A program made the translations under genes and the position numbers. This document shows positions 6,401-23,996 of a stretch of 25,609 bases of DNA, in pieces. Below the pieces are notes generated by a model. It had not been told where the DNA came from and searched no databases. It saw only the letters and a program-made list of their open reading frames with translations. Each line of letters starts with the position of its first letter. Positions within the stretch are counted from its first letter, which is position 1. The DNA comes from a virus (taxonomy: Duplodnaviria; Heunggongvirae; Uroviricota; Caudoviricetes), in IMG/VR virus record IMGVR_UViG_3300030339_000018, one strand, 5' to 3'.

Positions 6401-7957
6401 AAATTTTATGCTAAACAATCTGGGGATGATATATCTTCAACTCTTCAATATTTTCAAGATTACATACAATCAAATATATATAATGAACCTATAATTTCAT
6501 CAGAATTACAAGATGTAGTTAAATGAGTAGAAGCTGCAAAAGGTTTTACAAGTAAATTAATTATGCCTTTTAGACCTGCAATGTTAGTAAAAGAATTAAG
6601 TATGGGAACAATTGTTAATGTTTCAAGAGCTTTTACACAAATTTATGGAGAAAATTCATTTAATATTAAACATTTAGCAGAAGCATATAAAGTTATGATA
6701 GGATCTAATAAACAATTTTCAAGAGATTTTAATAAAGTAGATGCTGTTAATAATGCCTATGGTGTAGTAAATTTAGATATGAATGTACTTGTTAATAAAA
6801 CAAGAACAGATAGAGTTGGGGCATTAAATGCATTTAATGAATGGATGTATTTTACTGCAGGACATGGTGATTATGTAAATAGAATGACTTTATTTATTGC
6901 ACAAATGATACATGATGGTGTATGAGATGCTCATACTGTAAATGAAGATGGGCATTTAATTTATGATTTTGAAAAGGATACTAGATTTGCAGAATATAAT
7001 GCTCATAAAAACTCTAAAAATTATACTTCAAAAGCATTTTTAGATCAAAAATCTCTCTATAAAGTAATTCTACAACAATTTAATACAGAAGGTTATACTA
7101 AAGAAGATGGTTCCTTGTATACAGAAGGAGATGCATTACCACAAGCATATACAGTTAAAGATAAAGAAAGTTTAAAATCTTTTGCTGATTTAGCTTATGG
7201 TTTTTATGATCATGAACGTAAATCTATGTTTAATAAAACTGCAACAGGTATTGTATTTATGCAATTTATGACATTCTGGACTGCTAAAAAAGCCTTATGG
7301 TTTACTAAACCTGGAAGTACAGAAAATAGTCAAGGTATGTGAAAAACTAAAGAAGTTATAGATCCTACTGATGGTATAAAGAAAACAGTATTTAAACGTG
7401 AATTTAAAGATGAAAATGGTATTATAGAGCATGTAGAAGAAACATTTGAGAATGATGGTAAAATGGAACCAGTAAAATATTGGGAAGGTAATCCACATGT
7501 TGGATTATTTTATGCATTAACTCATACTTTTAGAGATTTAAGTAGAGGTAATTTTAAAGAAGCATTTGCAGATACTAAACGTAATAATAGATCAAAACAA
7601 GCTTTACATGATATACTTGCTGTAATGTTTTATGCATTTATTGCAAGATTAATGTTCGGAGCAGCTAGAGAAGCTATGGGAATGGATACAACAGTTGATC
7701 CATTAAAACCAACTAAAAATGGTGGAGATTTAACTATAGTACAAAATTCATTATCATTACTTGAAAAATCCCAATTAAAAGCCTTTGGTGAATTTAATCC
7801 AGTATCAAATATTTTTGGTGGATTTAGTTGGGAACCAGCATTTGCTACTAAAGTTACAAATGTAGTTACTGGAGCTCAAAATGTAATTTTTGGTGATGGA
7901 GATCTTCTTAACTATGCTAAAAAGAATGTTACAATGTTAGAAAATTTCAATATTTAA
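3404..7957 (+). CDS. Giant (1517 aa) putative virion cargo protein with an N-terminal PD-(D/E)xK nuclease domain; read through 5 TGA codons
   Basis: One frame from ATG 3404 (TAATG overlap) to TAA 7955-7957. Interruptions are only TGA at 3815, 3842, 6524, 6923 and 7340; the gaps were translated by hand and are stop-free. Motifs: GT[W]MH, KIDLLLIGEDGKAHIYDLK, YQL. Confidence 0.8.
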
Positions 7958-7961
7958 AAAA

Positions 7962-8001
7962 AATAGCCCCTATATATCGGTTAAGATACATAGGGGCTAT
8001 T
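7962..8001. terminator. Bidirectional intrinsic terminator between the convergent blocks
   Basis: AATAGCCCCTATATATC-GGTTAA-GATACATAGGGGCTATT: 17-bp stem (one A-C pair on +, G-U on -), with an A-tract on the left and a T-rich tract on the right. Confidence 0.9.
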
Positions 8002-8011: not shown

Positions 8012-8719
8012 TTAAGAATTATAAAATTTACGAGCATATTGTCGTCTTAAACTCTCCATTTTTGCATTTGGTGCAGGATTTTCAAAATGTTTTCTAAATA
8101 ATTCAGCTGCATCTTCTGGAGTTTTTGCTTCTTTTATCTTAGAAAGAACACCACTATAACTATTATTTAATTCATGCCATAGATATTCCATTTGACCATT
8201 TACAGAGGTATTATCTAATCCTCTTGCAGTTGAAAAGTTTTTTAAATTAGTCCATCTTCCTTGACCTACAGTTGGATCTCTCCATTGTGCTAACCCAAAA
8301 GATGTACCTTTATCCCCACCTGCTGTGGTATTTAATCCAGATTCAACCATTAAATTACCAACTACACCAGAAGCTGCTTCTTTAGATAAACCTTTATTAG
8401 TTAAAAAAGAAACCATATCTTTAGCTACACCTGTTTGTCCTTTACTAATTTTTATATTAGCAGTAATTGGGGTTTCTTTAGGTACAATTGGTGTTACAAT
8501 TTGTGGTGTAGAAGTTGAAAATAAAGGACTAGTAGATTTTATAACATCAGGTATATTATAATTTGGTAGAGTTGGTGTTTGTATATTAGTTATTGGTGCT
8601 GTATAAATAGGTGCACCTGTATATTGTACAAAAGGTAAAAGTACAGAGGTTTCTCCTGGATTATATTTATTCATATACTCTGCATATTGATTTATATCAT
8701 TTGTTGTATCGTAGTCCAT
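8012..8719 (-). CDS. Phage tail lysozyme-family (Phage_lysozyme2-like) muralytic enzyme with a Pro/Thr-rich N-terminal linker
   Basis: GVVGNLMVESGLN, GTSFGLAQW, GQMEYLWHEL and AAELFRKHFENP motifs. ATG 8719 (MDYDTT) is preferred over the track's GTG 8806, which lies inside a terminator hairpin. Confidence 0.8.
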   Translation of the reverse strand: MDYDTTNDINQYAEYMNKYNPGETSVLLPFVQYTGAPIYTAPITNIQTPTLPNYNIPDVIKSTSPLFSTSTPQIVTPIVPKETPITANIKISKGQTGVAKDMVSFLTNKGLSKEAASGVVGNLMVESGLNTTAGGDKGTSFGLAQWRDPTVGQGRWTNLKNFSTARGLDNTSVNGQMEYLWHELNNSYSGVLSKIKEAKTPEDAAELFRKHFENPAPNAKMESLRRQYARKFYNS

Positions 8720-8741
8720 ATTTTTAGATTTATTTAATTTG

Positions 8742-8749
8742 TAAAGGTA
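8742..8749 (-). promoter_or_regulatory. Possible Bacteroidota-type -7 element for the lysozyme gene (TACCTTTA, 1 mismatch)
   Basis: One mismatch to TAnnTTTG, 23 nt upstream of ATG 8719; no good -33 TTTG. Confidence 0.25.
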
Positions 8750-8785
8750 CAAAATAAAACCTATAAAAAATACTAAAATATAAAT

Positions 8786-8828
8786 AAAAAAAAATAGCCT
8801 AACCACATCATCACGACGGGGTTAGGCT
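8786..8828 (-). terminator. Intrinsic terminator ending the ligase operon
   Basis: Minus strand AGCCTAACCCCGTC-GTGAT-GATGTGGTTAGGCT (14-bp stem with one mismatch and one G-U) followed by ATTTTTTTTT. Confidence 0.85.
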
Positions 8829-8879
8829 TCACTACTTTATAAACAAAAAAGTATTTTTTACGTGTACTACACGTTATAT

Positions 8880-9229
8880 TTAAGAAAATAGTTTACTCCA
8901 GGCAGATTTTCTGGATAAATTATTTTCTAATTGAGTTTTAAATTCTTCTTTATTATTGTTATCAATTGATATTCTTTGATTAATACCAAGTAATAATTCA
9001 ATAATTTTTGATTCTAATGCTTCTACTGATTCTGTATTGACTCTGTAGAATTTATCTCCCTATTAAAAGGAGATAAATCTATAGATCTACATGAATAACT
9101 ATCAGTTTTAAAATAAATATAAGTATAAAATTTATTTTTATTTATTTCTATATTTAGTCTTTTATTTTCTTCTAACATTTGATCATATTGCCATTTAGGC
9201 ATTGTAATTGTTATTTCATCTCTATTCAT
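8880..9229 (-). pseudogene. Frameshifted hypothetical gene (116 aa if one base is restored near 9058-9060)
   Basis: ATG 9229 overlaps the ligase stop and its frame ends at TAG 9023-9025. A second frame, GGA 9059 to TAA 8880-8882, is open for 59 codons with no ATG (GDKFYRVNTESVEALESKIIELLLG...KSAWSKLFS). Confidence 0.55.
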
Positions 9230-10397
9230 AATCACGAACGCATTTAAATACAGGTTGACTTGGAATACCATCATCTGACCAACTAAAAAATGTAACAGAT
9301 GCTTTTTTACCAACTAGGTCTTCCCATGTTGCTAAATATTCTGCTCTTACTTCCCTAGTTCCCATTGGTTTTGCATCAAAACTCTTCCCTGTTTTAGTTT
9401 TTAAAGTGAAACAGAAATCTTCATCACGAAGTCCTTCTGATACACCTATTATTTCAAATTCTTCTTCCATACGTTCTTTTAGTTTAACCATAAGAACACT
9501 AGAACGCTTTCCAATACCATATGGTTTATTAGGATTACGCATTACTAAACCTTCATAACCTTCTCTTACAAATTGATCATGAGTTTTTTTAATTTTTAAA
9601 TATCCAGATAATAAATAATGATCTATAACTGTAATTTTAGGTTCATCTTTCATTATTTCTTGTAATTCCATTAATAATTCATATCTATCAACAAAATTTA
9701 AAGTTGGATGATATATATCATAAATCCAATAATTTAATACATCACATTTAGATTCCCATTCTTTAACTCTAGCCATACCAGACAGTTTTTGAAGAGAAGT
9801 ACCATGATTATATAATTCACCATCCAATTTTAAATCTGGATTAGCAATAAACCATTTAATTAATTTTTCACTAGCTCTAATTTTAGTAGTTGGTATATTA
9901 TATTCTCCACCACCACGACTTGCACTATGTATCTCATTATCTTTAAGAAATAGGCAACATCTAACTCCATCAAGTTTTCTTGAACAATACCATTCTTTTT
10001 CAAATATATTTGAAGAACACTTTTCAGAAGATACTGCAAGCATGGGTTTTGGTACACCATTTTGATCTTCTTTGTCAGTATTTACTAATTCATCAATTTC
10101 AGAATCTGATAAATCTTCAAAAGAGATTTCAGTTAAATCTTCAATTTTTGTATATCCTTTATCCATATATTTTTTTAATATGGATTTATATTCTAATTCA
10201 GCTTGTTGGATTGGAGTTCTTTTTACTTTACCACTAGTTATAGTAATAACAGGTTGAGGAGTTATCTTTCCAGCCAATTGACTTGTAAATCTTTTTATTT
10301 CAAATGAGGTAGTATTTTGTTCACAAATAGTATGAACAATTTGTACTTTACCTCTAACATTTCTACTTACTAAGTAGTTTTCAAATACTATTGCCAT
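9222..10397 (-). CDS. ATP-dependent DNA ligase (N-terminal WGR-like region)
   Basis: Motif I RKLDGVR, III LDGELY, IIIa WIYDI, IV EGLVMR, V VKLK; ends TAG. Confidence 0.93.
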   Translation of the reverse strand: MAIVFENYLVSRNVRGKVQIVHTICEQNTTSFEIKRFTSQLAGKITPQPVITITSGKVKRTPIQQAELEYKSILKKYMDKGYTKIEDLTEISFEDLSDSEIDELVNTDKEDQNGVPKPMLAVSSEKCSSNIFEKEWYCSRKLDGVRCCLFLKDNEIHSASRGGGEYNIPTTKIRASEKLIKWFIANPDLKLDGELYNHGTSLQKLSGMARVKEWESKCDVLNYWIYDIYHPTLNFVDRYELLMELQEIMKDEPKITVIDHYLLSGYLKIKKTHDQFVREGYEGLVMRNPNKPYGIGKRSSVLMVKLKERMEEEFEIIGVSEGLRDEDFCFTLKTKTGKSFDAKPMGTREVRAEYLATWEDLVGKKASVTFFSWSDDGIPSQPVFKCVRDYE

Positions 10398-10753
10398 TAA
10401 ATTTTTTTATTTTGTTCTAATTTATCTAATTCCCAACCAATACATTCTTCAAGGCAAGTTCCACCATTATAAAAACCCACTCTAAATTCATACATATCAT
10501 TTCCTAATGGATTTAGACTACAATCATCATCATTAACTTCCGAATGATCAAATATCCAATAAAGATCATTGTTATGAACCATATAAGTTTCATAACTATC
10601 TTCATATACTAAATAATCAATCCAATCTTCTACTTCTTCAGTAGGATAATCATGGGTTTCTAAATAAATACGTTTACATTGTTCATCTAATGGTTCAAAT
10701 TTTAATCTTGGTAATAATTTTAATTTACCAATATGATATTCTATATCACTCAT
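10397..10753 (-). CDS. Hypothetical acidic protein, 118 aa
   Basis: ORF with TAATG coupling to the ligase. Confidence 0.8.
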   Translation of the reverse strand: MSDIEYHIGKLKLLPRLKFEPLDEQCKRIYLETHDYPTEEVEDWIDYLVYEDSYETYMVHNNDLYWIFDHSEVNDDDCSLNPLGNDMYEFRVGFYNGGTCLEECIGWELDKLEQNKKI

Positions 10754-10759
10754 AATTTA

Positions 10760-10945
10760 TTATTCTATTACTGTCCAACAAGAATCAATGTTTTCCCACA
10801 TCCAAGCTTCATATTCACCTTGAATTATTTGATCTGGATCTTTATCACAATCATAATCATCTGGTATAGATATAATTTTAATATGTTCTCTTTCTGAACC
10901 TTGACATCCTGTTGCTACATAAAAATTTACTTTTATATTTTTCAT
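10760..10945 (-). CDS. Hypothetical protein, 61 aa (MKNIKVNF...)
   Basis: ATG 10945 is preferred over the track's GTG 11017, which lies inside dut. Confidence 0.7.
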   Translation of the reverse strand: MKNIKVNFYVATGCQGSEREHIKIISIPDDYDCDKDPDQIIQGEYEAWMWENIDSCWTVIE

Positions 10946-10983
10946 TCTACAAATACCTTTTGTATTGTTTTTTCTGTATTCAT
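10942..10983 (-). CDS. 13-aa mini-[16 protein letters not shown] (TGA stop)
   Basis: TAATG overlap with the dut stop and ATGA overlap with the next start; fills the gap exactly. Confidence 0.4.
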   Translation of the reverse strand: MNTEKTIQKVFVE

Positions 10984-11468
10984 TATTTTGTTCCTGTTGA
11001 GTTAAAGCCACCTTCACCTCTGTCTGTTTTATCTAAATGAATTACTTCATTCCATTCAATTAAAGATACTTTAGCTAAAACTAATTGAGCTATTCTATCT
11101 CCTTGTTGTATTTCAAATACATCATCACTTAAATTCATAAGTATAACACCAATTTCTCCACGGTAATCACTATCAATCGTTCCAGGTGTATTTAATACTG
11201 TTACCCCAAATTTTAATGCAGTACCACTTCTTGGTCTTACTTGTAGTTCATATCCTGGAGGAAATGAAGTGTATAATCCTGTTGGGATTAATACTCTACC
11301 ACCACTGAATACTAATAATGTATTTCTTTCTTCATCAAATGCTGCTCCGAACATATATTCAGAATTTAAGCCATTGGTAAAGTTAGCACGGAGATCCTGT
11401 CCTGAATCTCCGGGTTTCGCATATGTTGGGAGGGCATTCCCTCCATCATTTATTACGTTTACTTTCAT
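10983..11468 (-). CDS. dut: Trimeric dUTPase
   Basis: Five motifs: [38 protein letters not shown]. Confidence 0.95.
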
Positions 11469-11607
11469 CGTTTATTTTTTCTTTTTCTAATTTCTTAATT
11501 AACTCAACAAGATTATAATAACCTTGGCATTTAGTACTCATATCACTAAGAATACTGAAATGAAGTTCAATATATTTAAGAGTGTATAAATCCAGTTTCT
11601 TTTCCAT
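11446..11607 (-). CDS. Hypothetical protein, 53 aa ([18 protein letters not shown]...ESKRNK), TGA stop; not in track
   Basis: Translated by hand. ATG 11607 to TGA 11446-11448; overlaps the dut start by 23 nt. Confidence 0.6.
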
Positions 11608-11755
11608 TATTTTGTATTATTTCAAGTACTTTTTCTAATTCAACATATTTTTTAGTTACTGGACAGAATTTTATACTAATCCATTTATTCTCTATTATAT
11701 TAATAGTTTTTAATTTATTAATTTTTAATTCTATTTTATCCGACTCTAAACTCAT
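11576..11755 (-). CDS. Hypothetical protein, 59 aa (MSLESDKIELKINK...GFIHS); not in track
   Basis: Translated by hand; fills the gap between neighbours with short overlaps. Confidence 0.6.
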   Translation of the reverse strand: MSLESDKIELKINKLKTINIIENKWISIKFCPVTKKYVELEKVLEIIQNNGKETGFIHS

Positions 11756-11945
11756 TGTCTTTTAATGTATTACTAATTAATATTTCATAGTGTTTATAAC
11801 TACTTAATCTAGTACCATCTTCTTCAATACCTATGCATAATTCTTGTAGAAGAACCGTAGCAGTAGTTGAATTCATAACAATGAACTCAACTACTCCTTT
11901 CATACTCTTACTAATTATTGCTTCATTTAATAATTTTTGTATCAT
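11736..11945 (-). CDS. Hypothetical protein, 69 aa
   Basis: ORF in a tightly packed operon. Confidence 0.7.
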   Translation of the reverse strand: MIQKLLNEAIISKSMKGVVEFIVMNSTTATVLLQELCIGIEEDGTRLSSYKHYEILISNTLKDNEFRVG

Positions 11946-11955
11946 TTATTTTTTA

Positions 11956-12210
11956 TTAATTATCATAGTATACTTCATCTAATGGAACTGTTACTATTGA
12001 TTCTAGATGTTCCTCACTCCAATAACTATATTCACCATCTTCATCATTAGTATCAATCACACATTCTCTATCTGTATTGAATTTGAATTCTCCTTTATTA
12101 ACCCAACCTTCAATAAATCCTACTATAAACCCAGTATAAAGATCACCACATTCAGTAAACCAAACTTCATCTCCTACAAAAAACTTTTTCTTCCCCATTT
12201 CTATGCACAT
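11956..12210 (-). CDS. Hypothetical protein (F-x-VGDEVW start, SH3/KOW-like); alternative start ATG 12198
   Basis: ORF overlapping the nrdJ stop. Confidence 0.7.
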   Translation of the reverse strand: MCIEMGKKKFFVGDEVWFTECGDLYTGFIVGFIEGWVNKGEFKFNTDRECVIDTNDEDGEYSYWSEEHLESIVTVPLDEVYYDN

Positions 12211-14762
12211 TTCGAATTACCGCAATTAAGACATTGCTTGCATCCTGATTGATAAACAATTGTCTCCATTCCACATTCTGTACAAATTTCTCCATGAGAT
12301 TGTGTACCATCTTTTACAAATGGTTTTAATGATCTTTCAATACCATTTTTCCAGTTATTCATTCCTTTATTAGTGAACATTAATCCACCAACAACTTTAA
12401 TAACTTGTTCAATAGGAGTTTTATGTCTTAATAATGCTGATACAAATCGAGCATAATTCCAAAATTCTTTATCAAAAATACGAGATAATCCTCCTAATGT
12501 ATTAGTATATCCATAAGAATCAATATATCTAAAATCATATCTTGAGGTTCCATCATTTTGTTGTACTTTAATAATTTGTCCACTAGTTACAAAAGATGGA
12601 ATTGGAAATACATCCATATCTTTAGGGCCAGTAAATATTTCATAAGGTAAATCATTCATAATTCCTATAAATGCAACCCAATCTTTTTTCTCATTTTTAA
12701 ATTGTTCAACTTTACATTCTAATTCAATAGGTCTTTCTTCTAGAATGTCAGAAGATACATCTGCAGTTTTAGTTAAAATACCAGCTCTACATCCATCACG
12801 ATATACAGTTGTCCCTTTTAAATCATACTTCCATGCTAATCTATAAAGAGTATCTATAGTTTCCTTAGGAGTATCACTTGCTAAATTAATAGTAGAACTA
12901 ATAGAATGAGTAGTATATTTTTGTAATAAACTCTGAGTTTGAATTCTCACTTCTGGAGTAATATCTTCAGCCATATTATTATACCAAGGAGAGTTTTCAA
13001 TTAAGAAATCTAACTCAGCATCTGGCATTTTCATTAATACTTCAATAGTACTTAATGGATTTTTTGATATATACCATTTCTTAAAACTACCATGAATAAC
13101 TCTATTATTAGTATAACCTTGGCCACTTAAATCAATAAAATCAGGAGTTTCATTTCCATTACATTTCTTTCTGCGATTGTAATATGCCATAAATAATGGT
13201 TCACAACCACTTGTTGTACCTGCTTCAATACTGATAGTACCAGTAGGTGCAATTGTGCTCCAACTAATATTTCTCCTGCCATATTTTTTCATTTTTTCAT
13301 ATTGAGGTCTAAAATTAGTTCTCAAAAATTGATAAAATTGATTACCTGCCGACTCAAGATCTCCATCTAAAGGGTATTCTAAATCTTTATCATAAACAGG
13401 AAATGGATCATTAATAATTGCTAAATCAATAGTTGCATCTGATTCAGCTTTCATTTTGAGAGCCATGATTTGTTTAGTGATAGCTACATCTCCATAATCT
13501 ACACCTAATGCAGCACATAAATCTCCATAACCAGTTATACCTACTCCTGTACGTCTGCCATTTTGACCTACTTCATAAATTTTTTCCCAAAGGACTTTTT
13601 CATCTCCTATTGTTGCATCAATTATTCTTTGTACATGTTCAAGTTCTAAATCAACAAGAATATCACCAATTACTTGTGCTTCATAAAATACTTTATAAGC
13701 CTTATCTATATTAATTGTAGCATTGTCTTCAAATTGATTATCTACTAAATTGAATAAATTCACTGCAATTAATCTACAAGAATCATAAGGTGAGAGTGGA
13801 ATCTCTCCACAAGGATTTGTGCTAATTGCTCTAAATTCTGGATATACACTTGCAGGATCATTATCAATGATGGTATCCCAAAATAAAATACCAGGTTCTG
13901 CTGTATTCCAAGCACATTGAATTATAGAATCCCATAATTCTTTTGCTTTAATTTTCTTTGCATATGCAACTAATACACCATCTACTTTAATACTTTTTAA
14001 AATATTATAAGGAAATTCCATTTCAGATTCAAGTAATTCATTACATTCATAATCAACTGGCCACCTTAGTATATAATCTTCATTTGCTTCAACAGCTTTC
14101 ATAAATGTATCTGTTAATCTTACAGATATATTTGCCCCATTAATTTTAGTTAAATTTTGTTTAGCTAAAATAAATTCTGGAGAATCTGGATGATCAATAC
14201 TTAATGAAAGCATTAATGCTCCACGTCTACCATCTTGTCCAATAGTTTCAGTAACTTTACTGTATAATTCTGCAAATGGTACAATACCACCAGTAGTTTT
14301 TGCTGCATTATTTACATAAGCTTTTGCAGGTCTAATAGGAGATAAATCAGTCCCATTACCACCTCTACGTTTATAAATCTGCGACATATCTCTTGCTGTA
14401 TTAAAAATATCAGCAATAGAATCATCTGTTGGCGTAACAAAACAATTAGATAATGATACTAATTTTCCACTACCTAATCCTGCTAGTACAGAACCACCAG
14501 GAATTATATATTTAAAATCAGTAAATAATTCTAATAATTTTTCTTTAAAATCTTGATCATTTCGTTTTTTTCCATAATCTGATAAATCCGCATATTTTTC
14601 AGGAGATATTTTATTAATATTCATAAAATTATCTTTTCTTGCAAATTCTGATGCTAAACGATTAAAAAACTCAGATAAAGTTTCGTCATTTAATCTATAT
14701 TTATCAACCCACACTTTTCGTGCTAAATCATCGTTTTTGAAGTAATCTTCAATTTCTATCAT
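12201..14762 (-). CDS. nrdJ: Class II (adenosylcobalamin-dependent) ribonucleotide reductase, 853 aa
   Basis: TNPCGEI thiyl-radical Cys motif, SNCF, TIAPTGTIS and C-terminal CTECG...GCKQCLNCGNSKC. No ATP cone and no nrdB nearby. Start ATG 14762 lies downstream of the promoter; the track's TTG 14798 is inside it. Confidence 0.9.
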   Translation of the reverse strand: MIEIEDYFKNDDLARKVWVDKYRLNDETLSEFFNRLASEFARKDNFMNINKISPEKYADLSDYGKKRNDQDFKEKLLELFTDFKYIIPGGSVLAGLGSGKLVSLSNCFVTPTDDSIADIFNTARDMSQIYKRRGGNGTDLSPIRPAKAYVNNAAKTTGGIVPFAELYSKVTETIGQDGRRGALMLSLSIDHPDSPEFILAKQNLTKINGANISVRLTDTFMKAVEANEDYILRWPVDYECNELLESEMEFPYNILKSIKVDGVLVAYAKKIKAKELWDSIIQCAWNTAEPGILFWDTIIDNDPASVYPEFRAISTNPCGEIPLSPYDSCRLIAVNLFNLVDNQFEDNATINIDKAYKVFYEAQVIGDILVDLELEHVQRIIDATIGDEKVLWEKIYEVGQNGRRTGVGITGYGDLCAALGVDYGDVAITKQIMALKMKAESDATIDLAIINDPFPVYDKDLEYPLDGDLESAGNQFYQFLRTNFRPQYEKMKKYGRRNISWSTIAPTGTISIEAGTTSGCEPLFMAYYNRRKKCNGNETPDFIDLSGQGYTNNRVIHGSFKKWYISKNPLSTIEVLMKMPDAELDFLIENSPWYNNMAEDITPEVRIQTQSLLQKYTTHSISSTINLASDTPKETIDTLYRLAWKYDLKGTTVYRDGCRAGILTKTADVSSDILEERPIELECKVEQFKNEKKDWVAFIGIMNDLPYEIFTGPKDMDVFPIPSFVTSGQIIKVQQNDGTSRYDFRYIDSYGYTNTLGGLSRIFDKEFWNYARFVSALLRHKTPIEQVIKVVGGLMFTNKGMNNWKNGIERSLKPFVKDGTQSHGEICTECGMETIVYQSGCKQCLNCGNSKCA

Positions 14763-14784
14763 ATTTATTCTTTTAAATTGTATA

Positions 14785-14816
14785 CAAAGATACAACAATT
14801 TTTCAATTCTCGCAAG
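14785..14816 (-). promoter_or_regulatory. Bacteroidota sigmaA-type promoter for nrdJ
   Basis: Minus strand CTTG-N20-TATCTTTG. The 11-mer TATCTTTGTAT is identical to that in the promoter at 21001-21011. Confidence 0.8.
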
Positions 14817-14860
14817 TATTAAAAAATGTTAACTCTCTATATATTATATGTTTATAGATA

Positions 14861-15133
14861 TTACATATCTAAAAATTCTTGGATTAACTCAGGTGTTAAT
14901 TCCTTTTTACTTTCAGGCCAATATGCCGCATATTCGACCACATTTTCATTCTCAAATATTAAAATAGGTAATTGTTTAGCCCCATGTCTAGTCATTAAAA
15001 GAATAGCATTTTTACGTTGTTTATAATTATCAAAATTATATGTTTCTAAATAAATAGGATATGTAACTTTATCTAATATACTAAAAACATTATCTTTTGT
15101 TTCATTATTATAAACTAATTTAATTACTCTCAT
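14861..15133 (-). CDS. Thioredoxin/glutaredoxin-fold-like protein with no Cys
   Basis: HGAKQLPILIF resembles the cis-Pro segment of the Trx fold; adjacent to nrdJ. Fold call is from memory. Confidence 0.45.
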   Translation of the reverse strand: MRVIKLVYNNETKDNVFSILDKVTYPIYLETYNFDNYKQRKNAILLMTRHGAKQLPILIFENENVVEYAAYWPESKKELTPELIQEFLDM

Positions 15134-15389
15134 TTTCTATATAATATTTAATTATTTGTCCATTTTTATCATATAAGATAGTTAATGGAATATCTAGTTT
15201 AATACATGATAATTTTACTGCATATAATAAATCAAATTGATGGGTTCTTATTAGTTGAACTATATTTTGTAAATCTACAGGAGTTGGTTGTTGTCGTCCA
15301 AATAAGTCTGTAACATTTACAATAAATTGATTTAACTCACCTATTGTCATTTGAGTATTATTAATAATTTTCTCAATTATTTCTTTCAT
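15120..15389 (-). CDS. Hypothetical protein, 89 aa
   Basis: ORF overlapping the downstream start. Confidence 0.8.
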   Translation of the reverse strand: MKEIIEKIINNTQMTIGELNQFIVNVTDLFGRQQPTPVDLQNIVQLIRTHQFDLLYAVKLSCIKLDIPLTILYDKNGQIIKYYIENESN

Positions 15390-15429
15390 ATAATATTTTT
15401 TAGTTGTGAGTAGTATTTAAAATCATTTT

Positions 15430-15474
15430 AATTAATTGTAATACCAAAACTGAATAATGGTATTACAATTAATT
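15430..15474. repeat. Perfect 17-bp inverted repeat with an 11-nt spacer
   Basis: AATTAATTGTAATACCA (15430-15446) / TGGTATTACAATTAATT (15458-15474), intergenic. Confidence 0.95.
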
Positions 15475-15495
15475 TTAAATGTTTAAAATGAAAAA

Positions 15496-15723
15496 TTATA
15501 CATTAATAGATAAATAATCTATTTCATAATCTCCATGTAATAATTCTTTAATAAGATTCTCATTTTCTTCATCATACACCTCACTCAATTCTTCTGCTGT
15601 TATATCAGATGGGATTGTAATAAATTTAGTAATACAAGCTTCAACTAGTACTTCTTGAGTATTTTGATTCCAAGGTGCATCTTCTGTATGTTCTGATACT
15701 CCAGGTGGATAATTTGATAACAT
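15496..15723 (-). CDS. Hypothetical acidic protein (N-terminal SNYPPGV...APWN motif)
   Basis: ORF; YPPG...APWN is a recurrent motif in small phage proteins. Confidence 0.8.
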   Translation of the reverse strand: MLSNYPPGVSEHTEDAPWNQNTQEVLVEACITKFITIPSDITAEELSEVYDEENENLIKELLHGDYEIDYLSINV

Positions 15724-15724
15724 A

Positions 15725-16165
15725 TTAATTTCTTTTTAAAAAAATATAATCTACACCTTTATAATAGTAAATTTCTCTTGGTTCAGTATCTAATATATCT
15801 TCATAATTATTCAAACAATATTCTTCAAGTTCATCTTCATCTACTATAAAAGTGGATGGCATATAATTTGAATTTCTCATATTATATTTTAAATCTTGTT
15901 CTGCATTATAAATTTCATTAGGTAATAATTCATATTTAATTAAATTATGCATTTCTGTTGCTGTATAAATTAAATAATTATATTCATCTTCATCATTATA
16001 AGTAGCTTTGAAATTATTATCATCATCACTATCTTCATCTAACTCTACAATTTCTAAATCATCACTATCTATTTCTAGAAATTCTTCTAAAGCTTCAATT
16101 TTTAAAATTACTACTTGTTGTTCTTCAGTAAGGATTATTTCCTCTACATTTTCTAAATTATTCAT
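15725..16165 (-). CDS. Highly acidic hypothetical protein, 146 aa
   Basis: Hand count: 41 D+E versus 9 K+R. Confidence 0.85.
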   Translation of the reverse strand: MNNLENVEEIILTEEQQVVILKIEALEEFLEIDSDDLEIVELDEDSDDDNNFKATYNDEDEYNYLIYTATEMHNLIKYELLPNEIYNAEQDLKYNMRNSNYMPSTFIVDEDELEEYCLNNYEDILDTEPREIYYYKGVDYIFLKRN

Positions 16166-16466
16166 ATACTACTATTGTTTTTGTTATTGGAAATACTTCC
16201 TTTATCTCTTCTATTTCAAAATAATCATAACCATGTATACTAATCATACAAAAGTATTTATTATCTGAAATCCTTTTAAATATTGTTTCTCTAGTTATAG
16301 AACCACCATGACCTTCATCATAACTATCAATAGTAGAGTCAACTACTTCAAAAAGTAATTTTGAATCATCATCACAATCATCATCTATATAAATATCTTC
16401 AAAATAAGTAAGTTGATCAAAATTATATTTATCCCATTGGGATTTATCAATTATTTCTCTATTCAT
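16158..16466 (-). CDS. Acidic hypothetical protein, paralogue of 16459..16743
   Basis: FKRISDNKYF...EVFPITKTIVVYE. Confidence 0.85.
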   Translation of the reverse strand: MNREIIDKSQWDKYNFDQLTYFEDIYIDDDCDDDSKLLFEVVDSTIDSYDEGHGGSITRETIFKRISDNKYFCMISIHGYDYFEIEEIKEVFPITKTIVVYE

Positions 16467-16743
16467 AGATTGTAGTCATTACTTGTTTTGGTTGTACCTC
16501 CATTAAAATAAATTCTTCATCATCTTCAGTATAATCAGACATATTACAATTATAATTATAAAAAGCACTTGTACTAAAGAACTTATCATCAGTAGCTCTT
16601 TGAAGAATTACTTCAAATTCCCAAAGGTCATGATCAACTCCTAATAATTTTTTATAATCTTCAACTATTTCAAAATTATCAGATTCATTATCTAGAATTT
16701 CTATGAATTCTTTACCAAATATAATAACTTCTTCTTTAATCAT
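16459..16743 (-). CDS. Acidic hypothetical protein, paralogue of 16158..16466
   Basis: LQRATDDKFF...EVQPKQVMTTIYE; ends TAG. Confidence 0.85.
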   Translation of the reverse strand: MIKEEVIIFGKEFIEILDNESDNFEIVEDYKKLLGVDHDLWEFEVILQRATDDKFFSTSAFYNYNCNMSDYTEDDEEFILMEVQPKQVMTTIYE

Positions 16744-17509
16744 TAGTAACTCCTAATAAACGGTTAATAATCATAGTCTTTTCAAACTTATTCATAATAT
16801 CTTTTTTATCATCAGTTACTATTTGAGTAAATGCATTATATACATCAAATAGTGAAGGATCATGACCTTCTGGAATAAAATATTCACTCTCTTGATTAAT
16901 AAATAATTGTTTATATGCATCAATTGGAGTAGATACTGCAATTTTTACTTTACCAAAACCATAGTCTTGTGATTCTCTTAAAGAGTAGTCAACCCATTCT
17001 CCAAGATATTGTTTACGCATATCCCTACTAAGGAATTCACTTTTCATTTTTGCCATATTAATAGCAAAGTCATTAGTATATTCCATTAAATCCTTAATTG
17101 GTTTAAAATTAATTGGATCTCCTGGGATTAAATCTTGTACATTTAACCATTGAGGATTAAATACTGTTAAATTTGTACAGGCTTGATTCAAATATCCTCT
17201 ATAGATTTTAACTACTGGTTTCTTTACATCTATACCATATAAAAATCCTATAACTTCATCATGAGAATCAATACTGTATTTCTCAGGTAATACTGCTTGA
17301 ATTAAAACTCTATTAAAAGTTATATCAGTATTCTCTGTATTTGTGGTCATTTGATCAGGCATTTTTACTTGAATCCTAAAATCTTCTGTAAAAGCAGTCA
17401 TTCTTTCTAAAAATGGTTCTACATAATTTTTAGTTGCATTAAATTCTTTATTTTTTATAAGGGTTGACTTCCCTCTTAGCAATTCTGCTATACTTATTTC
17501 ATTTGCCAT
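16736..17509 (-). CDS. DUF932/DUF945-like conserved crAss-type protein
   Basis: GFLYGID...KIYRGYLNQACTNL resembles the DUF932 CxN motif region; family call is from memory. Confidence 0.55.
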   Translation of the reverse strand: MANEISIAELLRGKSTLIKNKEFNATKNYVEPFLERMTAFTEDFRIQVKMPDQMTTNTENTDITFNRVLIQAVLPEKYSIDSHDEVIGFLYGIDVKKPVVKIYRGYLNQACTNLTVFNPQWLNVQDLIPGDPINFKPIKDLMEYTNDFAINMAKMKSEFLSRDMRKQYLGEWVDYSLRESQDYGFGKVKIAVSTPIDAYKQLFINQESEYFIPEGHDPSLFDVYNAFTQIVTDDKKDIMNKFEKTMIINRLLGVTND

Positions 17510-17511
17510 TA

Positions 17512-17793
17512 TTAATCATTATTATTTTCATTTGCATATAATAAACCTTCATCATAACCTTCACTATATCCATTTTCGTACCCATTTTTATATCCATTTT
17601 CATATGCCCTGTCAGATTCTTCACTACAACCTCTATCATAACCTTCATCATAACCTTCAGCAGAACCATCAGCAAATGCTAAATTATATTCTTCAGCTAA
17701 CTGATCTTCAAAAATAGAATATAATTCTTCAACTAATTCATCTTCTTCATACTCGAAATTTTCAAGTAAAAATTCTCTTATATTTTCTTTCAT
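17512..17793 (-). CDS. Acidic protein with GY(D/E/K/S)x tetrapeptide repeats (FliH/Yae1-like GxxxG repeat)
   Basis: EGYDEGYDRG...ENGYKNGYENGYSEGYDEG. Confidence 0.8.
   Translation of the reverse strand: MKENIREFLLENFEYEEDELVEELYSIFEDQLAEEYNLAFADGSAEGYDEGYDRGCSEESDRAYENGYKNGYENGYSEGYDEGLLYANENNND
17544..17659. repeat. 20-bp direct repeat within a 12-bp-periodic coding repeat
   Basis: aaccttcatcataaccttca at 17544-17563 and 17640-17659. Confidence 0.9.
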
Positions 17794-17794
17794 A

Positions 17795-18160
17795 TTAATA
17801 ACTTATTTTTTTTCCACATTCAGGACAATAATTTTGTTCATTAAATTTTGCATCATCACAACAATTAACTATTTTTAATTCTCTTTTTTTAATTAAATAA
17901 CTATATTGTTTAACTAATTCATCTAAATTTAAAAATTCTAATTCTGGATATTCATCTGTATCTTCTAAATCTTCAGGATCATATAATAAATCTTTATTGA
18001 CATGATAATTTATATAATCTTGTATAAAACTCTCTAGTTCATAATTACTATAAATATCTATATCATTATCTTTAATAAATTCCTCAATATCAAATTCAAT
18101 ATCTGTATTAAATAATTTATTAAGTTGGATTGTATATCTGCTTTTTATTTTTACTATCAT
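17795..18160 (-). CDS. Acidic protein with a C-terminal zinc-ribbon-like Cys cluster
   Basis: NCCDDAKFNEQNYCPECG. Confidence 0.8.
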   Translation of the reverse strand: MIVKIKSRYTIQLNKLFNTDIEFDIEEFIKDNDIDIYSNYELESFIQDYINYHVNKDLLYDPEDLEDTDEYPELEFLNLDELVKQYSYLIKKRELKIVNCCDDAKFNEQNYCPECGKKISY

Positions 18161-18528
18161 AATTTACAATTTTCTAAATTAAATTCATATTCAAAATCTT
18201 CACTTTCTTCCATAAATTGAATAGGAGGAATTTCTCCATTCTTTAATTTATAAGTATAAAATTTATTATGTAGTAAAGGTAATCCTTCTACATCTGAATC
18301 ATATTCAGATTGCATATAAGCTATATCCTCTGCAAAGTTTAAATAAGGATAATCTTCTTCTTTAATATCTTCATCATCATATGATGTATTATATAAACCT
18401 GCTGGAGTTTGTTTTACATCATGAAAATATTTACAGAAATGATCAATAAAATCTTGATTAATTACTGTTTCATCTATTTCAACTGTATAAATCTTTTCAG
18501 ATTTAATTGTTACTTCTATTGTTTTCAT
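18157..18528 (-). CDS. Acidic hypothetical protein, 123 aa; TGA stop
   Basis: Ends TTA TGA TAG TAA; ATGA overlap with the next gene. Confidence 0.85.
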   Translation of the reverse strand: MKTIEVTIKSEKIYTVEIDETVINQDFIDHFCKYFHDVKQTPAGLYNTSYDDEDIKEEDYPYLNFAEDIAYMQSEYDSDVEGLPLLHNKFYTYKLKNGEIPPIQFMEESEDFEYEFNLENCKL

Positions 18529-20117
18529 TAGTATAATGTAGTATAAGACATTGTAAATTGATTAAATGTAATAGATTGTCTTTTGCCATGTTTATTTAAT
18601 GTTACTCCATTATATGCCCAGCCAGATAATCCACTATTATATCCATGTTGTTTAGAACATGAAATACCTACTTGATAACATCCTCCAACAATTGATGGTG
18701 AGTGCGAATGACCAATAATTGTTTTAGATGATAGTTGAGCAAATGATTTAATACTTCCTTTAGAACCATTAGGTCCTTTATGCCCATGTAATGCTAATTC
18801 TATATTATTTTTAATATAAGAATCATTAACTCCTAATGCAGTGATTTTATTAAATCTATCATTTATATAATAAGGTATAATACCATCTTTAGCTTTACCA
18901 GATAATGTTAATGATAACATTTCTACAAATAATTCAGCATTTTTAATATGTTCTTGCCAAGTAGTTTGATACATTGCTCTATCAAGCATATCATCATGAT
19001 TTGATCCTACTACTATAGTTTTTTTCATATTGTTATTAAACCAATTCAATTCAGTATTCATTTGATCTAATTCTTTCCTTAAATCATCTTTTCCTTCTTT
19101 CATTAATTGAAATTGCACTATTGGGTTTTTAATATTATGAACATTTATAGATTGACTATCCCAAACATCATGTAAGACTGACATTTCAATTTTTAAATCA
19201 TAGCATAATTTACGAAAAGCATTAGTTACACGATCTTCTTTTTGAGCAAAATGACTGTCCCCCCAAACTAAACATTCTACTGCTTCTTTTGTAACTACTC
19301 CATTTTGAACTCTATAAATTAAATCATTAAATTCTCCAAATTCATTAGCAGATACACTTCTAGTATGAACTACTTCATCACTTTCAATTTCTACTACTAT
19401 AAATCCATAAGAATGATTTTCAGCTGCTTTACCACCTGCAACAGTATCAGTAAAACTAGGCATAGTTACACTGCCAGTTGAAAAAAGAAATTTTTCTTTT
19501 TGACCTGGTAAAACTGCTACAGAACGCATTTCTATTTTAGGATTACCAACAATACAAGATGCATGTCCTCCAAATAACTCAATTCCACTAGTTGGACTAG
19601 GACAAGTTGCTTGTATTTTTAAATCAGCCAATACTACTAAATCATTATGTAGAAATTGTCTAGTTGCAATTAAATATTCTTGAACTTCTTTAGCCCAGAC
19701 ATCCCTTCCTTCACACCATATTGAAGTAGGATTTTTATATCTTGAAACTATAATTCCAATTTCTGCATCAATAAATTTTGCATAAGCTTTTATATTATTT
19801 AAAAAACTTATATTTACTGGAGATGCATTTTGAGCACTTGAAATTATGTATCTTTTTTTCTTTTTTAATGTATGTAGTTTAGCTGCTGAGAATTGAGTAG
19901 GATATAATACAATATTTAAAGATTCAAGCCAAATTTTTATAACATCTAATTCTACTTTGAAATGATCTGTTAAAATATCTAATTTACCTTGAATTGTATA
20001 TTCTTCATTTTTACAAATTCTTCTAATAGTGTCTTTATCAATATCAGAAAGATCTGGTTTAGTAATTTCAACTGTATTAACTGTTCCAACTTTTTCTACA
20101 TTTTCTTCTTTATTCAT
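18528..20117 (-). CDS. Calcineurin-like metallophosphoesterase, T5 A1-like
   Basis: WGDSH, LHDVWD, VGSNHD, HGH and GHSH motifs; the N-terminal YIISSAQNASPV...FLNNIKAYA segment is recalled from the A1 family. ATG 20117 is preferred over TTG 20123. Confidence 0.75.
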   Translation of the reverse strand: MNKEENVEKVGTVNTVEITKPDLSDIDKDTIRRICKNEEYTIQGKLDILTDHFKVELDVIKIWLESLNIVLYPTQFSAAKLHTLKKKKRYIISSAQNASPVNISFLNNIKAYAKFIDAEIGIIVSRYKNPTSIWCEGRDVWAKEVQEYLIATRQFLHNDLVVLADLKIQATCPSPTSGIELFGGHASCIVGNPKIEMRSVAVLPGQKEKFLFSTGSVTMPSFTDTVAGGKAAENHSYGFIVVEIESDEVVHTRSVSANEFGEFNDLIYRVQNGVVTKEAVECLVWGDSHFAQKEDRVTNAFRKLCYDLKIEMSVLHDVWDSQSINVHNIKNPIVQFQLMKEGKDDLRKELDQMNTELNWFNNNMKKTIVVGSNHDDMLDRAMYQTTWQEHIKNAELFVEMLSLTLSGKAKDGIIPYYINDRFNKITALGVNDSYIKNNIELALHGHKGPNGSKGSIKSFAQLSSKTIIGHSHSPSIVGGCYQVGISCSKQHGYNSGLSGWAYNGVTLNKHGKRQSITFNQFTMSYTTLY

Positions 20118-20159
20118 TTTCAATTTTTTATGGGTTGTACCCCGTTAATTCGTGTATTA

Positions 20160-20197
20160 ATGAAAAAAGGCCGATAGAATTTAATCTACCGACCTTT
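20160..20197 (-). terminator. Intrinsic terminator (possibly bidirectional) after the 207-aa gene
   Basis: Minus strand AAAGGTCGGTAGA-TTAAAT-TCTATCGGCCTTT (two G-U pairs), then a T-tract; also a T-tract on +. Confidence 0.85.
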
Positions 20198-20199
20198 AT

Positions 20200-20310
20200 T
20201 TTTTTATACTTTTATACTGTATTCAGTAAATGACTTACGACATTACTCGACTCAATATCCAATAGAGTTTCAGCTTCCTATTAACGGTAGAAGATTCCGT
20301 ATTGAATCTT
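20200..20310 (-). ncRNA. Candidate structured 3' UTR / small RNA (four adjacent hairpins)
   Basis: Hairpins at 20291-20310, 20250-20268, 20229-20244 (GUAA tetraloop) and 20215-20228. No family recognised. Confidence 0.3.
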
Positions 20311-20932
20311 ACAATTCAACTCCAAAAGCAACATAAGTTCCTTCTTTTGCAGAGATAGATGGAGTATAAACACCATAAGCTGCAATTGCACTTCCTTCTA
20401 CTACTTCTTTAGCAATTATAGTTACATAATCACGTTTTTCAGCAGAAATCCAATCTTTCATTTCGTCTAATGCTTCTGATTTTTTATCAGCAGTAGCTAC
20501 AACAGAACCTAAAGAAATAATTTCAGCAGTTAAAACTTCTTTAACTGTTACAATACCTTCTGCATCAGTTTCATTTACTTTAACTAATTTAGTAGCTAAT
20601 TCAGCTTCTACAATTTGGTGAGTACGTTTGAATTTACGAGCACCATCTGTAATAACAGAAATAACTTTATAAGGACGTTCACGAGTATCAGCAATACCTG
20701 ATTCAACAATTACATAAGCTCCTAGACCTTCTTTAAATTTGGTTTTCTTTTTTAATTGTTCAGAAGCGAATACCTTGAACGCACTAGTACCATTTGCAGG
20801 TTTTCCAGCTTTAATCCATGCTTGTGTAGCATTTGAACCTGACAATGTTAATACATCAAATCCGATTTTTTCTGTTGCTAATGCTTCTACTTTGGTAAAT
20901 CCTGTTGCTTCTTTAATTTTTACTTGATTCAT
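20309..20932 (-). CDS. Conserved hypothetical protein, 207 aa, monocistronic, with a high-expression codon pattern
   Basis: Own promoter and terminator; Arg is encoded by CGT instead of the AGA used by most neighbours; Ala/Val/Lys-rich. Confidence 0.9.
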   Translation of the reverse strand: MNQVKIKEATGFTKVEALATEKIGFDVLTLSGSNATQAWIKAGKPANGTSAFKVFASEQLKKKTKFKEGLGAYVIVESGIADTRERPYKVISVITDGARKFKRTHQIVEAELATKLVKVNETDAEGIVTVKEVLTAEIISLGSVVATADKKSEALDEMKDWISAEKRDYVTIIAKEVVEGSAIAAYGVYTPSISAKEGTYVAFGVEL

Positions 20933-21003
20933 AATTTTAATTTTTACTTATTAATTCATTAATATTTTATATCTAATTGTATTTATTATCTCCTTTTGTT
21001 ATA

Positions 21004-21035
21004 CAAAGATACTGCTTTTTTTCCATTTCACCAAA
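21004..21035 (-). promoter_or_regulatory. Consensus Bacteroidota sigmaA promoter
   Basis: Minus strand TTTG (21035-21032)-N20-TATCTTTG (21011-21004); A-rich leader without a positioned SD. Confidence 0.88.
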
Positions 21036-21103
21036 TGTTTTGGTAAATATTTTCAAAAAAAGTATCTTTTTATTACACAACATTTTTTTAATTTTTATTT
21101 AGA

Positions 21104-22042
21104 TTAAAATCCTAATACAGGTTTGTTATGTTCAAAACTGTCATATCGTTTCTTAGTTAAAGGATTTTTAATCTGTTCAATAACTTGATCAAAATTATTA
21201 CCTAAAACATAAGTTCCAATAAATAATTCTTTTAATTGAGATATAGAGAATTTTGTAGTACTATTTACAAATTTTTCTATATCAATTTTTTCAACACCTT
21301 TATTTTCAAAAAATATTGTTCTAGATTCTGAAGATGGGAAATCAATAATAACTCTCATATCTATTCTACTAGGACGTAATAATGCATCTGACAATCCAGA
21401 TGAATCATTTGTTGTAGCAATAACTAAATGATGATTTATTGACATTTTACCATCCAAAAAATCCAGTAATTGAGGTTCAATTGGTCCTGTTGCAATTTTA
21501 TCAATATCCTCAATGACAGTGATTATTTTGCGAGTTGGTTCAATTTTTCTTAATATATTTTTATAAAAATCATATATTATTGTGAAATCTTGTGAAGAAC
21601 CTACTAAAAATACAATTCCATCTTCCTTTAATAATTCATTTATTAATAAAGTAATAGTGGCAGTTTTACCTGTACCTGGAGGACCTTCCAATAGAATTCC
21701 TCTTTTATGTATCATCCCATACTCAGCAAATTTAGGAGTTCTCTCCCAAAATTTCTTTGATTCTTGAAGAATTGTAATAGTTTGAGAATCTGGTAATAAA
21801 TATAAAGAATCTGAAATAAGTTTTTGTGGAATACACGTAACTTTATCTCCAAGAACTCCTAATTTATAAACTCCAGACTTTACTCTCTTAACTACTTCTA
21901 CTTCAATAGCAGGATAATAATTTCCTTTCTCATAAATCCAACTAGAAAAATTATTTTCCAAATAGTATTTTTCAACATCTGAATTTTCTAATTCTCCACT
22001 AGCAACTAAACTATTAATAGTTATTTTTTTAGTATCACTCAT
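21104..22042 (-). CDS. AAA+ ATPase (classic clade)
   Basis: Walker A GPPGTGKT, Walker B VIEDID, sensor TTN, SRH DALLRPSRID. Confidence 0.93.
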   Translation of the reverse strand: MSDTKKITINSLVASGELENSDVEKYYLENNFSSWIYEKGNYYPAIEVEVVKRVKSGVYKLGVLGDKVTCIPQKLISDSLYLLPDSQTITILQESKKFWERTPKFAEYGMIHKRGILLEGPPGTGKTATITLLINELLKEDGIVFLVGSSQDFTIIYDFYKNILRKIEPTRKIITVIEDIDKIATGPIEPQLLDFLDGKMSINHHLVIATTNDSSGLSDALLRPSRIDMRVIIDFPSSESRTIFFENKGVEKIDIEKFVNSTTKFSISQLKELFIGTYVLGNNFDQVIEQIKNPLTKKRYDSFEHNKPVLGF

Positions 22043-22045
22043 ACT

Positions 22046-23995: not shown

Positions 23996-23996
23996 A

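Follow-up and report, generated by a model that had tools for sequence, protein, structure and literature searches.

The window, the whole stretch of 25,609 nt that was analysed, carries recoded genes on its plus strand and standard-code genes on its minus strand. The first plus-strand gene (positions 1–2556) consists of the 3′-terminal 851 codons of a gene with 2882 codons, which encodes a homologue of phi14:2 gp66, the RNA polymerase packaged in virions of crAss-like phages; it forms a single open frame under code 4. Its sense TGA codons at 469, 1729 and 2155 correspond to residues 2188, 2608 and 2750, all three downstream of the catalytic DxDxD motif (residues 2026–2030). The next gene (2556–3404, plus strand) has 282 codons, no family match and no tryptophan codon, neither TGA nor TGG. 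It is followed by a 1519-codon gene (3398–7957, plus strand), read in a code 4 frame, with an N-terminal PD-(D/E)XK nuclease domain, the only domain found when the giant proteins were compared with PHROGs and Pfam. Here sense TGA occurs at 3815, 3842, 6524, 6923 and 7340 (residues 140, 149, 1043, 1176 and 1315), in addition to eight TGG. Under code 4, the plus-strand genes contain eight in-frame TGA and nine TGG. A terminator-like hairpin of 17 bp (7962–8001) lies within the 54-base gap where this recoded block meets the minus-strand module head to head.

The minus-strand module (8012–25445) encodes, among others, a phage tail lysozyme-domain protein, a DNA ligase, a DUF7167 protein, a dUTPase, a ribonucleotide reductase and an AAA ATPase. 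The 30 minus-strand ORFs of the window contain 61 TGG and no internal TGA, and end in TAA (24), TAG (4) or TGA (2); calling them with code 11 or with code 4 makes no difference, apart from one ORF that gains a codon. The uneven use of TGA and TGG on the two strands is significant (Fisher p = 1.0e-6). A sequence-only reading of the window had noted that long minus-strand genes lack internal TGA, that NrdJ uses 13 TGG, and that 8 of 17 plus-strand tryptophan codons are TGA; all these counts are reproduced, NrdJ being the homologue of the ribonucleotide reductase large subunit at 12201–14798 (minus strand), with TGG at 13 of its 13 tryptophan codons. The same reading listed three ORFs ending in TGA, two of which stand. 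The first (123 codons, 18151–18528, minus strand) ends, as had been described, in the triple TGA-TAG-TAA (18159–18151), whose TGA shares an ATGA with the start codon of the next gene (17795–18160). The second (53 codons, 11446–11607, minus strand) overlaps the start of the dUTPase gene and is a gene call in most other assemblies of the region; it matches no family and lacks a homologue in a relative of the phage, G001. Readthrough of its TGA would add 20 codons, and two stable hairpins are situated 3′ of this TGA. The third is a frame of 13 codons (10942–10983, minus strand), from a TAATG at the dUTPase stop to an ATGA where DUF7167 probably starts, and it cannot be shown to be a gene. It overlaps the DUF7167 start, which is probably the ATG at 10945 (residue 25 of the 85-aa ORF), as residue 28 is the first of the domain.

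The in-frame TGA codons occur in conserved genes at sites where relatives have tryptophan or other aromatic residues. In the polymerase, sequence and profile searches against solved structures give no match, and fold comparison alone gives one: residues 1800–2420 align with 6vr4_A over 302 positions (Z 12.3, rmsd 4.5), the runner-up reaching Z 5.2. The DxDxD motif is unchanged across ∼118 homologues, and residue 2608, encoded by TGA, is tryptophan in 42 of the 64 homologues present at that column. Thus, the suggestion that the recoded genes include an RNA polymerase is borne out by both fold and motif, the first plus-strand gene being homologous to the virion RNA polymerase of phi14:2. The 2882-aa protein shares with phi14:2 gp66 (PDB 6VR4) the fold of the catalytic centre, the invariant DxDxD and the same kind of giant-gene block. 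It differs in having no sequence match, in being ∼700 residues longer and in carrying three TGA past the catalytic motif; gp66 is packaged into virions, as its homologue may be. The 1519-aa protein has 735 representative homologues, most of them ∼1500 aa long and uninterrupted. Its TGA columns, less conserved than its TGG columns, are occupied by W, Y, F or hydrophobic residues; the closest relative has W at 1043, 1176 and 1315, and G001 has TGG opposite the TGA of residue 1176. All eight TGA codons of the window are unchanged in the nine loci compared, which come from eight different records.

The window appears to derive from an uncultivated crAss-like phage of ∼168 kb, resembling the Zeta group and found in peat and fen metagenomes, a placement made through G001. 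It overlaps contig ena:ERZ27249832:k141_1775190 by 11,731 bases with no differences; a scan of viral contigs for exact matches gave none. Contigs of this phage genome measure 163–168 kb and the DNA has a GC content of 26%. The genome encodes a replication set (primase, DnaB, helicases, RNR, a Thy1-like protein, dUTPase and ligase), ∼20 tRNAs, mobile elements (split helicase and HNH genes) and a transcription block of giant proteins that includes the DxDxD RNA polymerase. Codon usage was tabulated over 119 kb of the 168-kb contig k141_1775190, leaving aside positions 1–33,272 and 152,354–168,189 (49 kb); counts are approximate, since ORFs were called by a simple longest-first scheme.

Over these 119 kb, the partition of TGA is sharp (Fisher p ∼1e-15 to 1e-17). 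A 90-kb minus-strand module for replication, nucleotide metabolism and tRNAs comprises 167 ORFs and 25,413 codons, in which TGG occurs 309 times and sense TGA hardly at all; 23 of its ORFs (14% of early-module ORFs) stop at TGA. The proposal that replication and metabolic genes keep the standard code is thereby upheld, and so is its extension to the other early genes within these 119 kb. In 20 of the 23 TGA-ended ORFs, the next TAA or TAG follows within 20 codons. The idea that such backup stops are a feature of TGA ends finds no support, as the median distance to the next TAA or TAG in this module is 3 codons after TGA vs 8 after TAA (Mann–Whitney p = 0.13); for DNA of 26% GC, this does not exceed chance. 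A NUDIX gene with an in-frame 65-codon ORF past its TGA was considered as a case of readthrough and rejected; it looks like two genes in one frame by chance. Past a sense TGA, the median open stretch of the frame is 343 codons in the giant genes and 108 in block D, a four-gene minus-strand block with a lysozyme-like member.

Sense TGA codons total 22, of which 14 are on the minus strand. Their minus-strand carriers are block D (9 TGA vs 2 TGG), located beside a suppressor tRNA gene, a tail-fibre gene for 596 aa (3 TGA), a 267-aa phrog_8119 gene and an HNH gene (one TGA each). Residues 51 and 377 of the tail-fibre protein, both encoded by TGA, are W in nearly all alignments that span them, and the HNH family model extends across the TGA of the HNH gene. 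Block D proteins match nothing in PHROGs and Pfam, nor the lysozyme-like block of G001 by BLASTP. Expressed as a share of tryptophan codons, TGA accounts for 0% in early genes, 25% in giant genes and 80–82% in block D and the tail-fibre islet. The claim that virion cargo genes are recoded holds in that they do contain sense TGA, but the giant genes are the least recoded of the recoded classes (25% vs ∼80%). Within the giant-gene block, TGA is used at none of 16 tryptophan codons upstream and at 8 of 16 in the last 2,500 codons; it is absent from polymerase codons 1–2187 and, in the 2390-aa giant gene before the polymerase, from the last 1109 codons, which are those covered. The plus-strand block C and two late-type genes, for the 282-aa protein and the tail-lysozyme-domain protein, also have no sense TGA.

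The suppressor postulated by the sequence-only reading has a candidate on contig k141_1775190. A tRNA(UCA) of 73 nt (L062:13770–13842, contig positions 145778–145850) scores 50.9 bits with the Rfam tRNA model, is assigned anticodon tca by ARAGORN and is found in three assemblies. It folds as a cloverleaf with a short variable region and looks like a tRNA-Trp: its nearest neighbour in the comparison set is a phage tRNA-Trp (70% identity), and its A1–U72 pair, G73 and CUUCAAA loop match those of bacterial tRNA-Trp. Recoding to selenocysteine was rejected in view of the 73-nt length and short variable region of the tRNA, and of TGA columns that are Trp or aromatic, not Cys or Sec. The tRNA(UCA) gene is located in a small standard-code block together with the replication-initiator gene, adjoining the most heavily recoded block. 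The window itself holds no tRNA, and the 19-tRNA array of the contig has no UCA anticodon, the suppressor being situated ∼36 kb beyond it. The 119 kb covered show no gene for a release factor or for a Trp-tRNA synthetase.

Collectively, these data make it very probable that the phage uses two codes, the standard one in its replication module and one in which its own tRNA reads TGA as tryptophan in virion and late genes. A host with the standard code could translate the replication-module genes from the moment of DNA entry. The tRNA(UCA) would be charged with tryptophan by the host enzyme and would compete with release factor 2, so that TGA-containing proteins would be completed only after the tRNA has built up. 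TGA stops of the remaining genes would become leaky and yet be harmless, because a TAA or TAG comes within a few codons. When readthrough takes place in this scheme, how efficient it is and which amino acid the tRNA carries are what we infer from sequence. The view of TGA as a ‘temporal gate’ on giant genes, as put forward in the sequence-only reading, is an interpretation of this kind, and the same model is already published (bioRxiv 10.1101/2021.08.26.457843; PMC7886860). As it shares its block with the replication-initiator gene, tRNA(UCA) may be made early, and a strict ‘gate’ is therefore weakened.

This mixed coding is real, yet phages of this type were already known to have it (Yutin 2021, Borges 2021), and no new principle is revealed. 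Zeta-group crAss-like phages use TGA for tryptophan chiefly in genes for virion structure, lysis and polymerase (PMC7886860; Lera PMC12386605). The present phage falls within their genome size (145–192 kb) and resembles them in its rich replication and nucleotide set, many tRNAs, suppressors, mobile introns, HNH genes and a giant-protein block with a DxDxD polymerase. It differs from them in being sparsely recoded (22 sense TGA in 119 kb) and in coming from peat and fen metagenomes, whereas descriptions of the group come from human gut and oral samples; moreover, its placement rests on the terminase of its relative, not on its own. That terminase, of G001 (174 kb), shares 64% identity with gut contig MT835470 and ∼30% with crAss-like phages that have names. 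G001 repeats the early/late partition of TGA: its early module has 320 TGG and 29 TGA stops (19% of ORFs) with no long extension, and its late module has 60 TGA and 218 TGG, 25 of 51 genes containing TGA. Its suppressor tRNAs, UCA and CUA, are the pair present in phage Lera (PMC12386605). On this placement, the mixed-code design of Zeta-type crAss-like phages would extend from gut to peat.

A code-switch model was proposed for Agate, Jade and other mixed-code phages (Borges et al., bioRxiv 10.1101/2021.08.26.457843). Like them, the present phage combines an inferred standard-code host, replication genes without the recoded codon, recoded structural and lysis genes, low GC and TAA-dominated stops, and its suppressor tRNA likewise lies within a standard-code block adjoining heavily recoded genes. 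Stop-codon loss was proposed to precede recoding in those phages, with TGA at 2.7% of the stops in a close relative that uses the standard code (bioRxiv 10.1101/2021.08.26.457843). Here, in contrast, the TGA terminator is not depleted (14% of early-module ORFs, and 19% in G001). In this phage, TGA often terminates genes of one class and serves almost freely as a tryptophan codon in another, a clean natural example that is useful to test recoding as a control of timing.

The most serious competitor of a regulatory role, with a probability somewhat below even, keeps the mechanism unchanged but has no adaptive gate. AT pressure would let TGG drift to TGA in genes translated once the tRNA is present, TGA would be purged from genes translated earlier, and the pattern would be a consequence of timing. 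A-ending codons make up 86–97% of two-fold pairs in every gene class, and block D and the tail-fibre islet, at 80–82% TGA, are near that equilibrium. The low conservation of the TGA columns in the 1519-aa protein and the proximity of tRNA(UCA) to the replication initiator fit drift as well. The giant genes, at only 25% TGA, do not: the confinement of TGA to the last 2,500 codons of their block points to selection on allowed positions, and the lysis-gene preference of the recoded codon reported by Borges et al. (bioRxiv 10.1101/2021.08.26.457843) also speaks against drift. TGA density is graded, not on/off. It is tempting, if rather improbable, to propose that tiers set by the suppressor level could fix the order and amounts of late proteins via one tRNA, including the ratio of truncated to full-length polymerase.

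A host using code 4 or 25, with constitutive readthrough and only one code, is very unlikely. The GC content of only 26% would suit such a host, and phages of code-25 hosts are known, but their TGA occurs in ∼90% of genes, whereas here it is not spread over nearly all genes. The replication module keeps its 309 TGG with essentially no sense TGA although A-ending codons otherwise make up 92–95%, 23 ORFs terminate at TGA, and the TGA columns hold Trp or aromatic residues instead of Gly. Because of these TGA-ended ORFs, the tryptophan codons of the early module and the kinship with Bacteroidota phages, a host with the standard code is most likely; the crAss-like kinship of the phage is the one feature that suggests a Bacteroidota host.

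Two-code usage in the phage is decided by gene class, not by strand, because block D, the tail-fibre gene and the HNH gene are recoded on the minus strand. The sequence-only reading was right about a split by module; a rule with plus-strand genes recoded and minus-strand genes standard, true within the window, is refuted, as 14 of the 22 sense TGA, including that of the 267-aa gene, break it on the same contig and as block C, the last 1109 codons of the 2390-aa gene and most of the polymerase gene lack TGA on the plus strand. Finally, that the plus-strand TGAs are real stops, in pseudogenes, assembly errors or separate small genes, is scarcely credible: code 11 gene callers do list the pieces separately, but every piece lies in one frame, the TGAs are identical in the nine loci, and hundreds of unbroken homologues (∼1500 and ∼3000 aa) span the sites. 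Unless the window is annotated with both codes, nine fragments stand in place of the virion RNA polymerase and the 1519-aa protein.

In the window (GC content 25–30%), three + strand genes (1–7957) converge with a long run of − strand genes (8012–25445). Code 4 joins nine + strand fragments, all in frame, into the three genes, whereas the − strand ORF set is the same under codes 11 and 4, save one ORF with one extra codon. The sequence-only reading, in which TGA stops − strand genes and encodes Trp in + strand virion genes, agrees with the codon counts in the window: the + strand has eight TGA and nine TGG, the − strand 61 TGG (13 within the ribonucleotide reductase gene) and no internal TGA (Fisher p = 1e-6). 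The eight TGAs are unchanged across nine loci from eight different records and are therefore not assembly errors. Two of three − strand ORFs said to end in TGA do so, namely a 123-aa ORF (18157–18528) with a TGA-TAG-TAA end and an ATGA overlap with the next gene, and a 53-aa ORF (11446–11607). The third TGA, at 10942, closes only a 13-codon frame; it merely overlaps a start codon, since the Met encoded at 10945 sits three residues before the DUF7167 domain. Two stable − strand hairpins (11372–11452; −25.3 kcal/mol, z = −3.6, equalled by 0 of 200 shuffles) begin one base past the TGA of the 53-aa ORF, within the dUTPase gene at its 5′ end, and may influence termination, re-initiation or the translation of dUTPase. 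Another hairpin, of 17 bp, GC-containing and with a T run, lies exactly at the junction of the + and − strand modules (7962–8001) and is likely a two-way terminator.

Exact-protein look-up found identical DNA in many peat or fen metagenome assemblies, including contigs of 163–168 kb. One, ena:ERZ27249832:k141_1775190, is identical to the window over an 11,731-base overlap (contig position = window position + 42,714). Its positions 33,273–152,353 were covered by stepwise look-ups, with a 7.3-kb gap bridged by a near-identical JGI contig through conflict-free overlaps. The whole sequence of IMG/VR contig G001 (173,865 bp, ∼45% protein identity) served as the comparison relative.

Tabulated genome-wide, as the earlier reading had proposed, TGA does split into terminator and sense codon between gene classes, but the − strand is not the dividing rule. 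The early module (− strand, contig 50.7–140.4 kb; 167 ORFs, 25,413 codons, 309 TGG) encodes primase, DnaB, helicases, RNR, ligase, dUTPase, a Thy1-like gene, NAMPT, a tRNA array and tmRNA. Among its 23 TGA-terminated ORFs, 20 have an in-frame TAA or TAG within 20 codons (median 3), whereas the median open frame past TGA is 343 codons long in the giant genes and 108 in block D, a four-gene − strand block at 147.0–150.5 kb with nine TGA and two TGG. The codon thus behaves as a stop in the early module but as sense in the giant genes and block D (p ≈ 1e-15 to 1e-17). In the early module, extensions after TAA are also short (median 8 versus 3 after TGA; p = 0.13), so that the triple stop at 18151–18159 needs no special explanation. 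Two of the module's three long post-TGA extensions are real recoded genes, both on the − strand: a tail-fibre-like gene of 596 aa (L050:7676-9463, in a stretch read from the contig; TGA at residues 21, 51 and 377) and an HNH endonuclease gene within the tRNA array (L055:17079-17861), whose HNH motif contains the TGA. The third, past a NUDIX gene, seems to be two separate genes that happen to share a frame. Recoding also extends to the phrog_8119 gene (267 aa) that adjoins the tail-fibre gene. Altogether, 14 of the 22 sense TGAs in 119 kb of contig are on the − strand; thus gene class, not strand, sets the rule. In the early module of G001 (151 ORFs, 320 TGG, 29 TGA stops), every post-TGA extension is ≤25 codons; in its late module, 25 of 51 genes contain TGA, and the codon counts are 60 TGA and 218 TGG.

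Use of TGA is graded. None of 28 Trp codons in four early genes is TGA, against 8 of 32 in the giant genes, 4 of 5 in the tail-fibre islet and 9 of 11 in block D. In the giant block, the first ∼3,300 codons hold 16 TGG and no TGA, and the last ∼2,500 hold eight of each. In two-fold codon pairs, the A-ending share is 86–97% throughout the phage genome. The most fully recoded gene seen is the diversity-generating retroelement (DGR) reverse transcriptase of G001 (L039:10493-11722; G001 30,493–31,725), with all six Trp codons TGA.

The earlier inference of a suppressor-dependent temporal gate is the early/late switch proposed by Borges et al. (bioRxiv 10.1101/2021.08.26.457843), in which early genes use the standard code and late genes are recoded. 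A small difference from that model is that TGA is undepleted here as a terminator (14% of early-module ORFs; 19% in G001). Yutin et al. 2021 (PMC7886860) described Zeta-group crAss-like phages whose late genes have TGA reassigned to Trp. Phage Lera (PMC12386605) reads TGA as Trp in its genes for structural proteins, lysin, holin and polymerase, and has UCA and CUA suppressor tRNAs. Collectively, the initial observation is real and statistically strong, with some details wrong, and its interpretation is right in substance but published before; the phage is a further, environmental example of already described mixed-code phages.

Glycine (code 25) and selenocysteine misfit the residues found at TGA columns. 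Tryptophan is indicated by homologues of the 1519-aa protein (735 representatives, most ∼1500 aa and unbroken), which have W, Y or F at TGA columns 1176 and 1315 and hydrophobic residues at the others; W stands at 1043, 1176 and 1315 in the closest relative, and G001 has TGG opposite 1176. At residue 2608 of the 2882-aa protein, 42 of 64 homologues have W, and tail-fibre residues 51 and 377 lie opposite W in nearly all spanning alignments.

No tRNA was found in the window, and the array of ∼20 tRNAs includes Trp(CCA) but no UCA anticodon. A 73-nt tRNA(UCA) lies on the + strand at L062:13770-13842 (contig 145,778–145,850), flanked by a 59-codon ORF and an HNH gene in block C. The 13 ORFs of this block, which lies directly upstream of block D, include a DnaD/O-like initiator and thioredoxin, and none of them uses TGA as sense or as stop. 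The tRNA was found in three assemblies, folds as a cloverleaf and scores 50.9 bits with the Rfam tRNA model; of the tRNAs it was compared with, a phage tRNA-Trp is the most similar (70% identity). Its A1-U72, G73 and CUUCAAA loop are shared with bacterial tRNA-Trp. In contrast to this Trp-like molecule, the UCA tRNA of G001 has 96 nt, a long variable arm and a 6-bp anticodon stem, is SeC-like by ARAGORN and is not listed by the Rfam tRNA search. A CUA (amber) suppressor tRNA is encoded by G001 as well, though TAG recoding is not evident; the two are at L038:1777-1872 and L038:2688-2760. The replication-side module of the TGA-suppressing phage carries a full-length tmRNA gene (L055:1672-2091, contig ∼122.3–122.7 kb; RF00023, 75.5 bits), and a RAGATH-1 hammerhead ribozyme match on the − strand (L062:5854-5949) is sub-threshold (44.5 bits, gathering score 56.3, E = 1e-4).

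The guess that the recoded cargo genes include an RNA polymerase proves right, given the motif and modelled fold of the 2882-aa protein, whose last 851 codons open the window. D-x-D-x-D is invariant in ∼118 homologues, and the predicted structure of residues 1800–2420 (pLDDT 79) has as its sole match the phi14:2 virion RNA polymerase 6VR4 (Foldseek E = 1.7e-4; Z 12.3, rmsd 4.5 Å over 302 residues; next best Z 5.2), pointing to a virion RNA polymerase homologue. All three of its TGAs are downstream of the catalytic motif. The gene is one frame here (L034:3350-11998) versus split in G001 (72,312–82,406), where genes of 2078 and 935 aa, broken near DxDxD, flank a 235-aa gene, a pattern resembling the mobile insertions reported for Zeta-group polymerases. 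Recoded genes of G001 also encode terminase, portal, tail proteins and a lysozyme-like protein, besides the DGR reverse transcriptase; the terminase is ∼30% identical to those of named crAss-like phages and phages of Flavobacterium, Cellulophaga and Azobacteroides. All four block D proteins (187, 391, 126 and 440 aa; L062:15040-18493, contig 147,045–150,501) share the N-terminal motif M-(K/R)-x-N-(I/P)-(E/Q)-x-L-(K/Q). The motif, absent from the rest of the 119 kb read and from G001, may be a shared signal for targeting or processing. In the 391-aa protein there is also a lysozyme-like E...T-x-AYG stretch. Finally, a helicase is called in pieces of 99 aa (ResIII), 388 aa (without family) and 328 aa (Helicase_C) at L047:9606-12184 (contig ∼74.6–77.2 kb), consistent with an intron with endonuclease.
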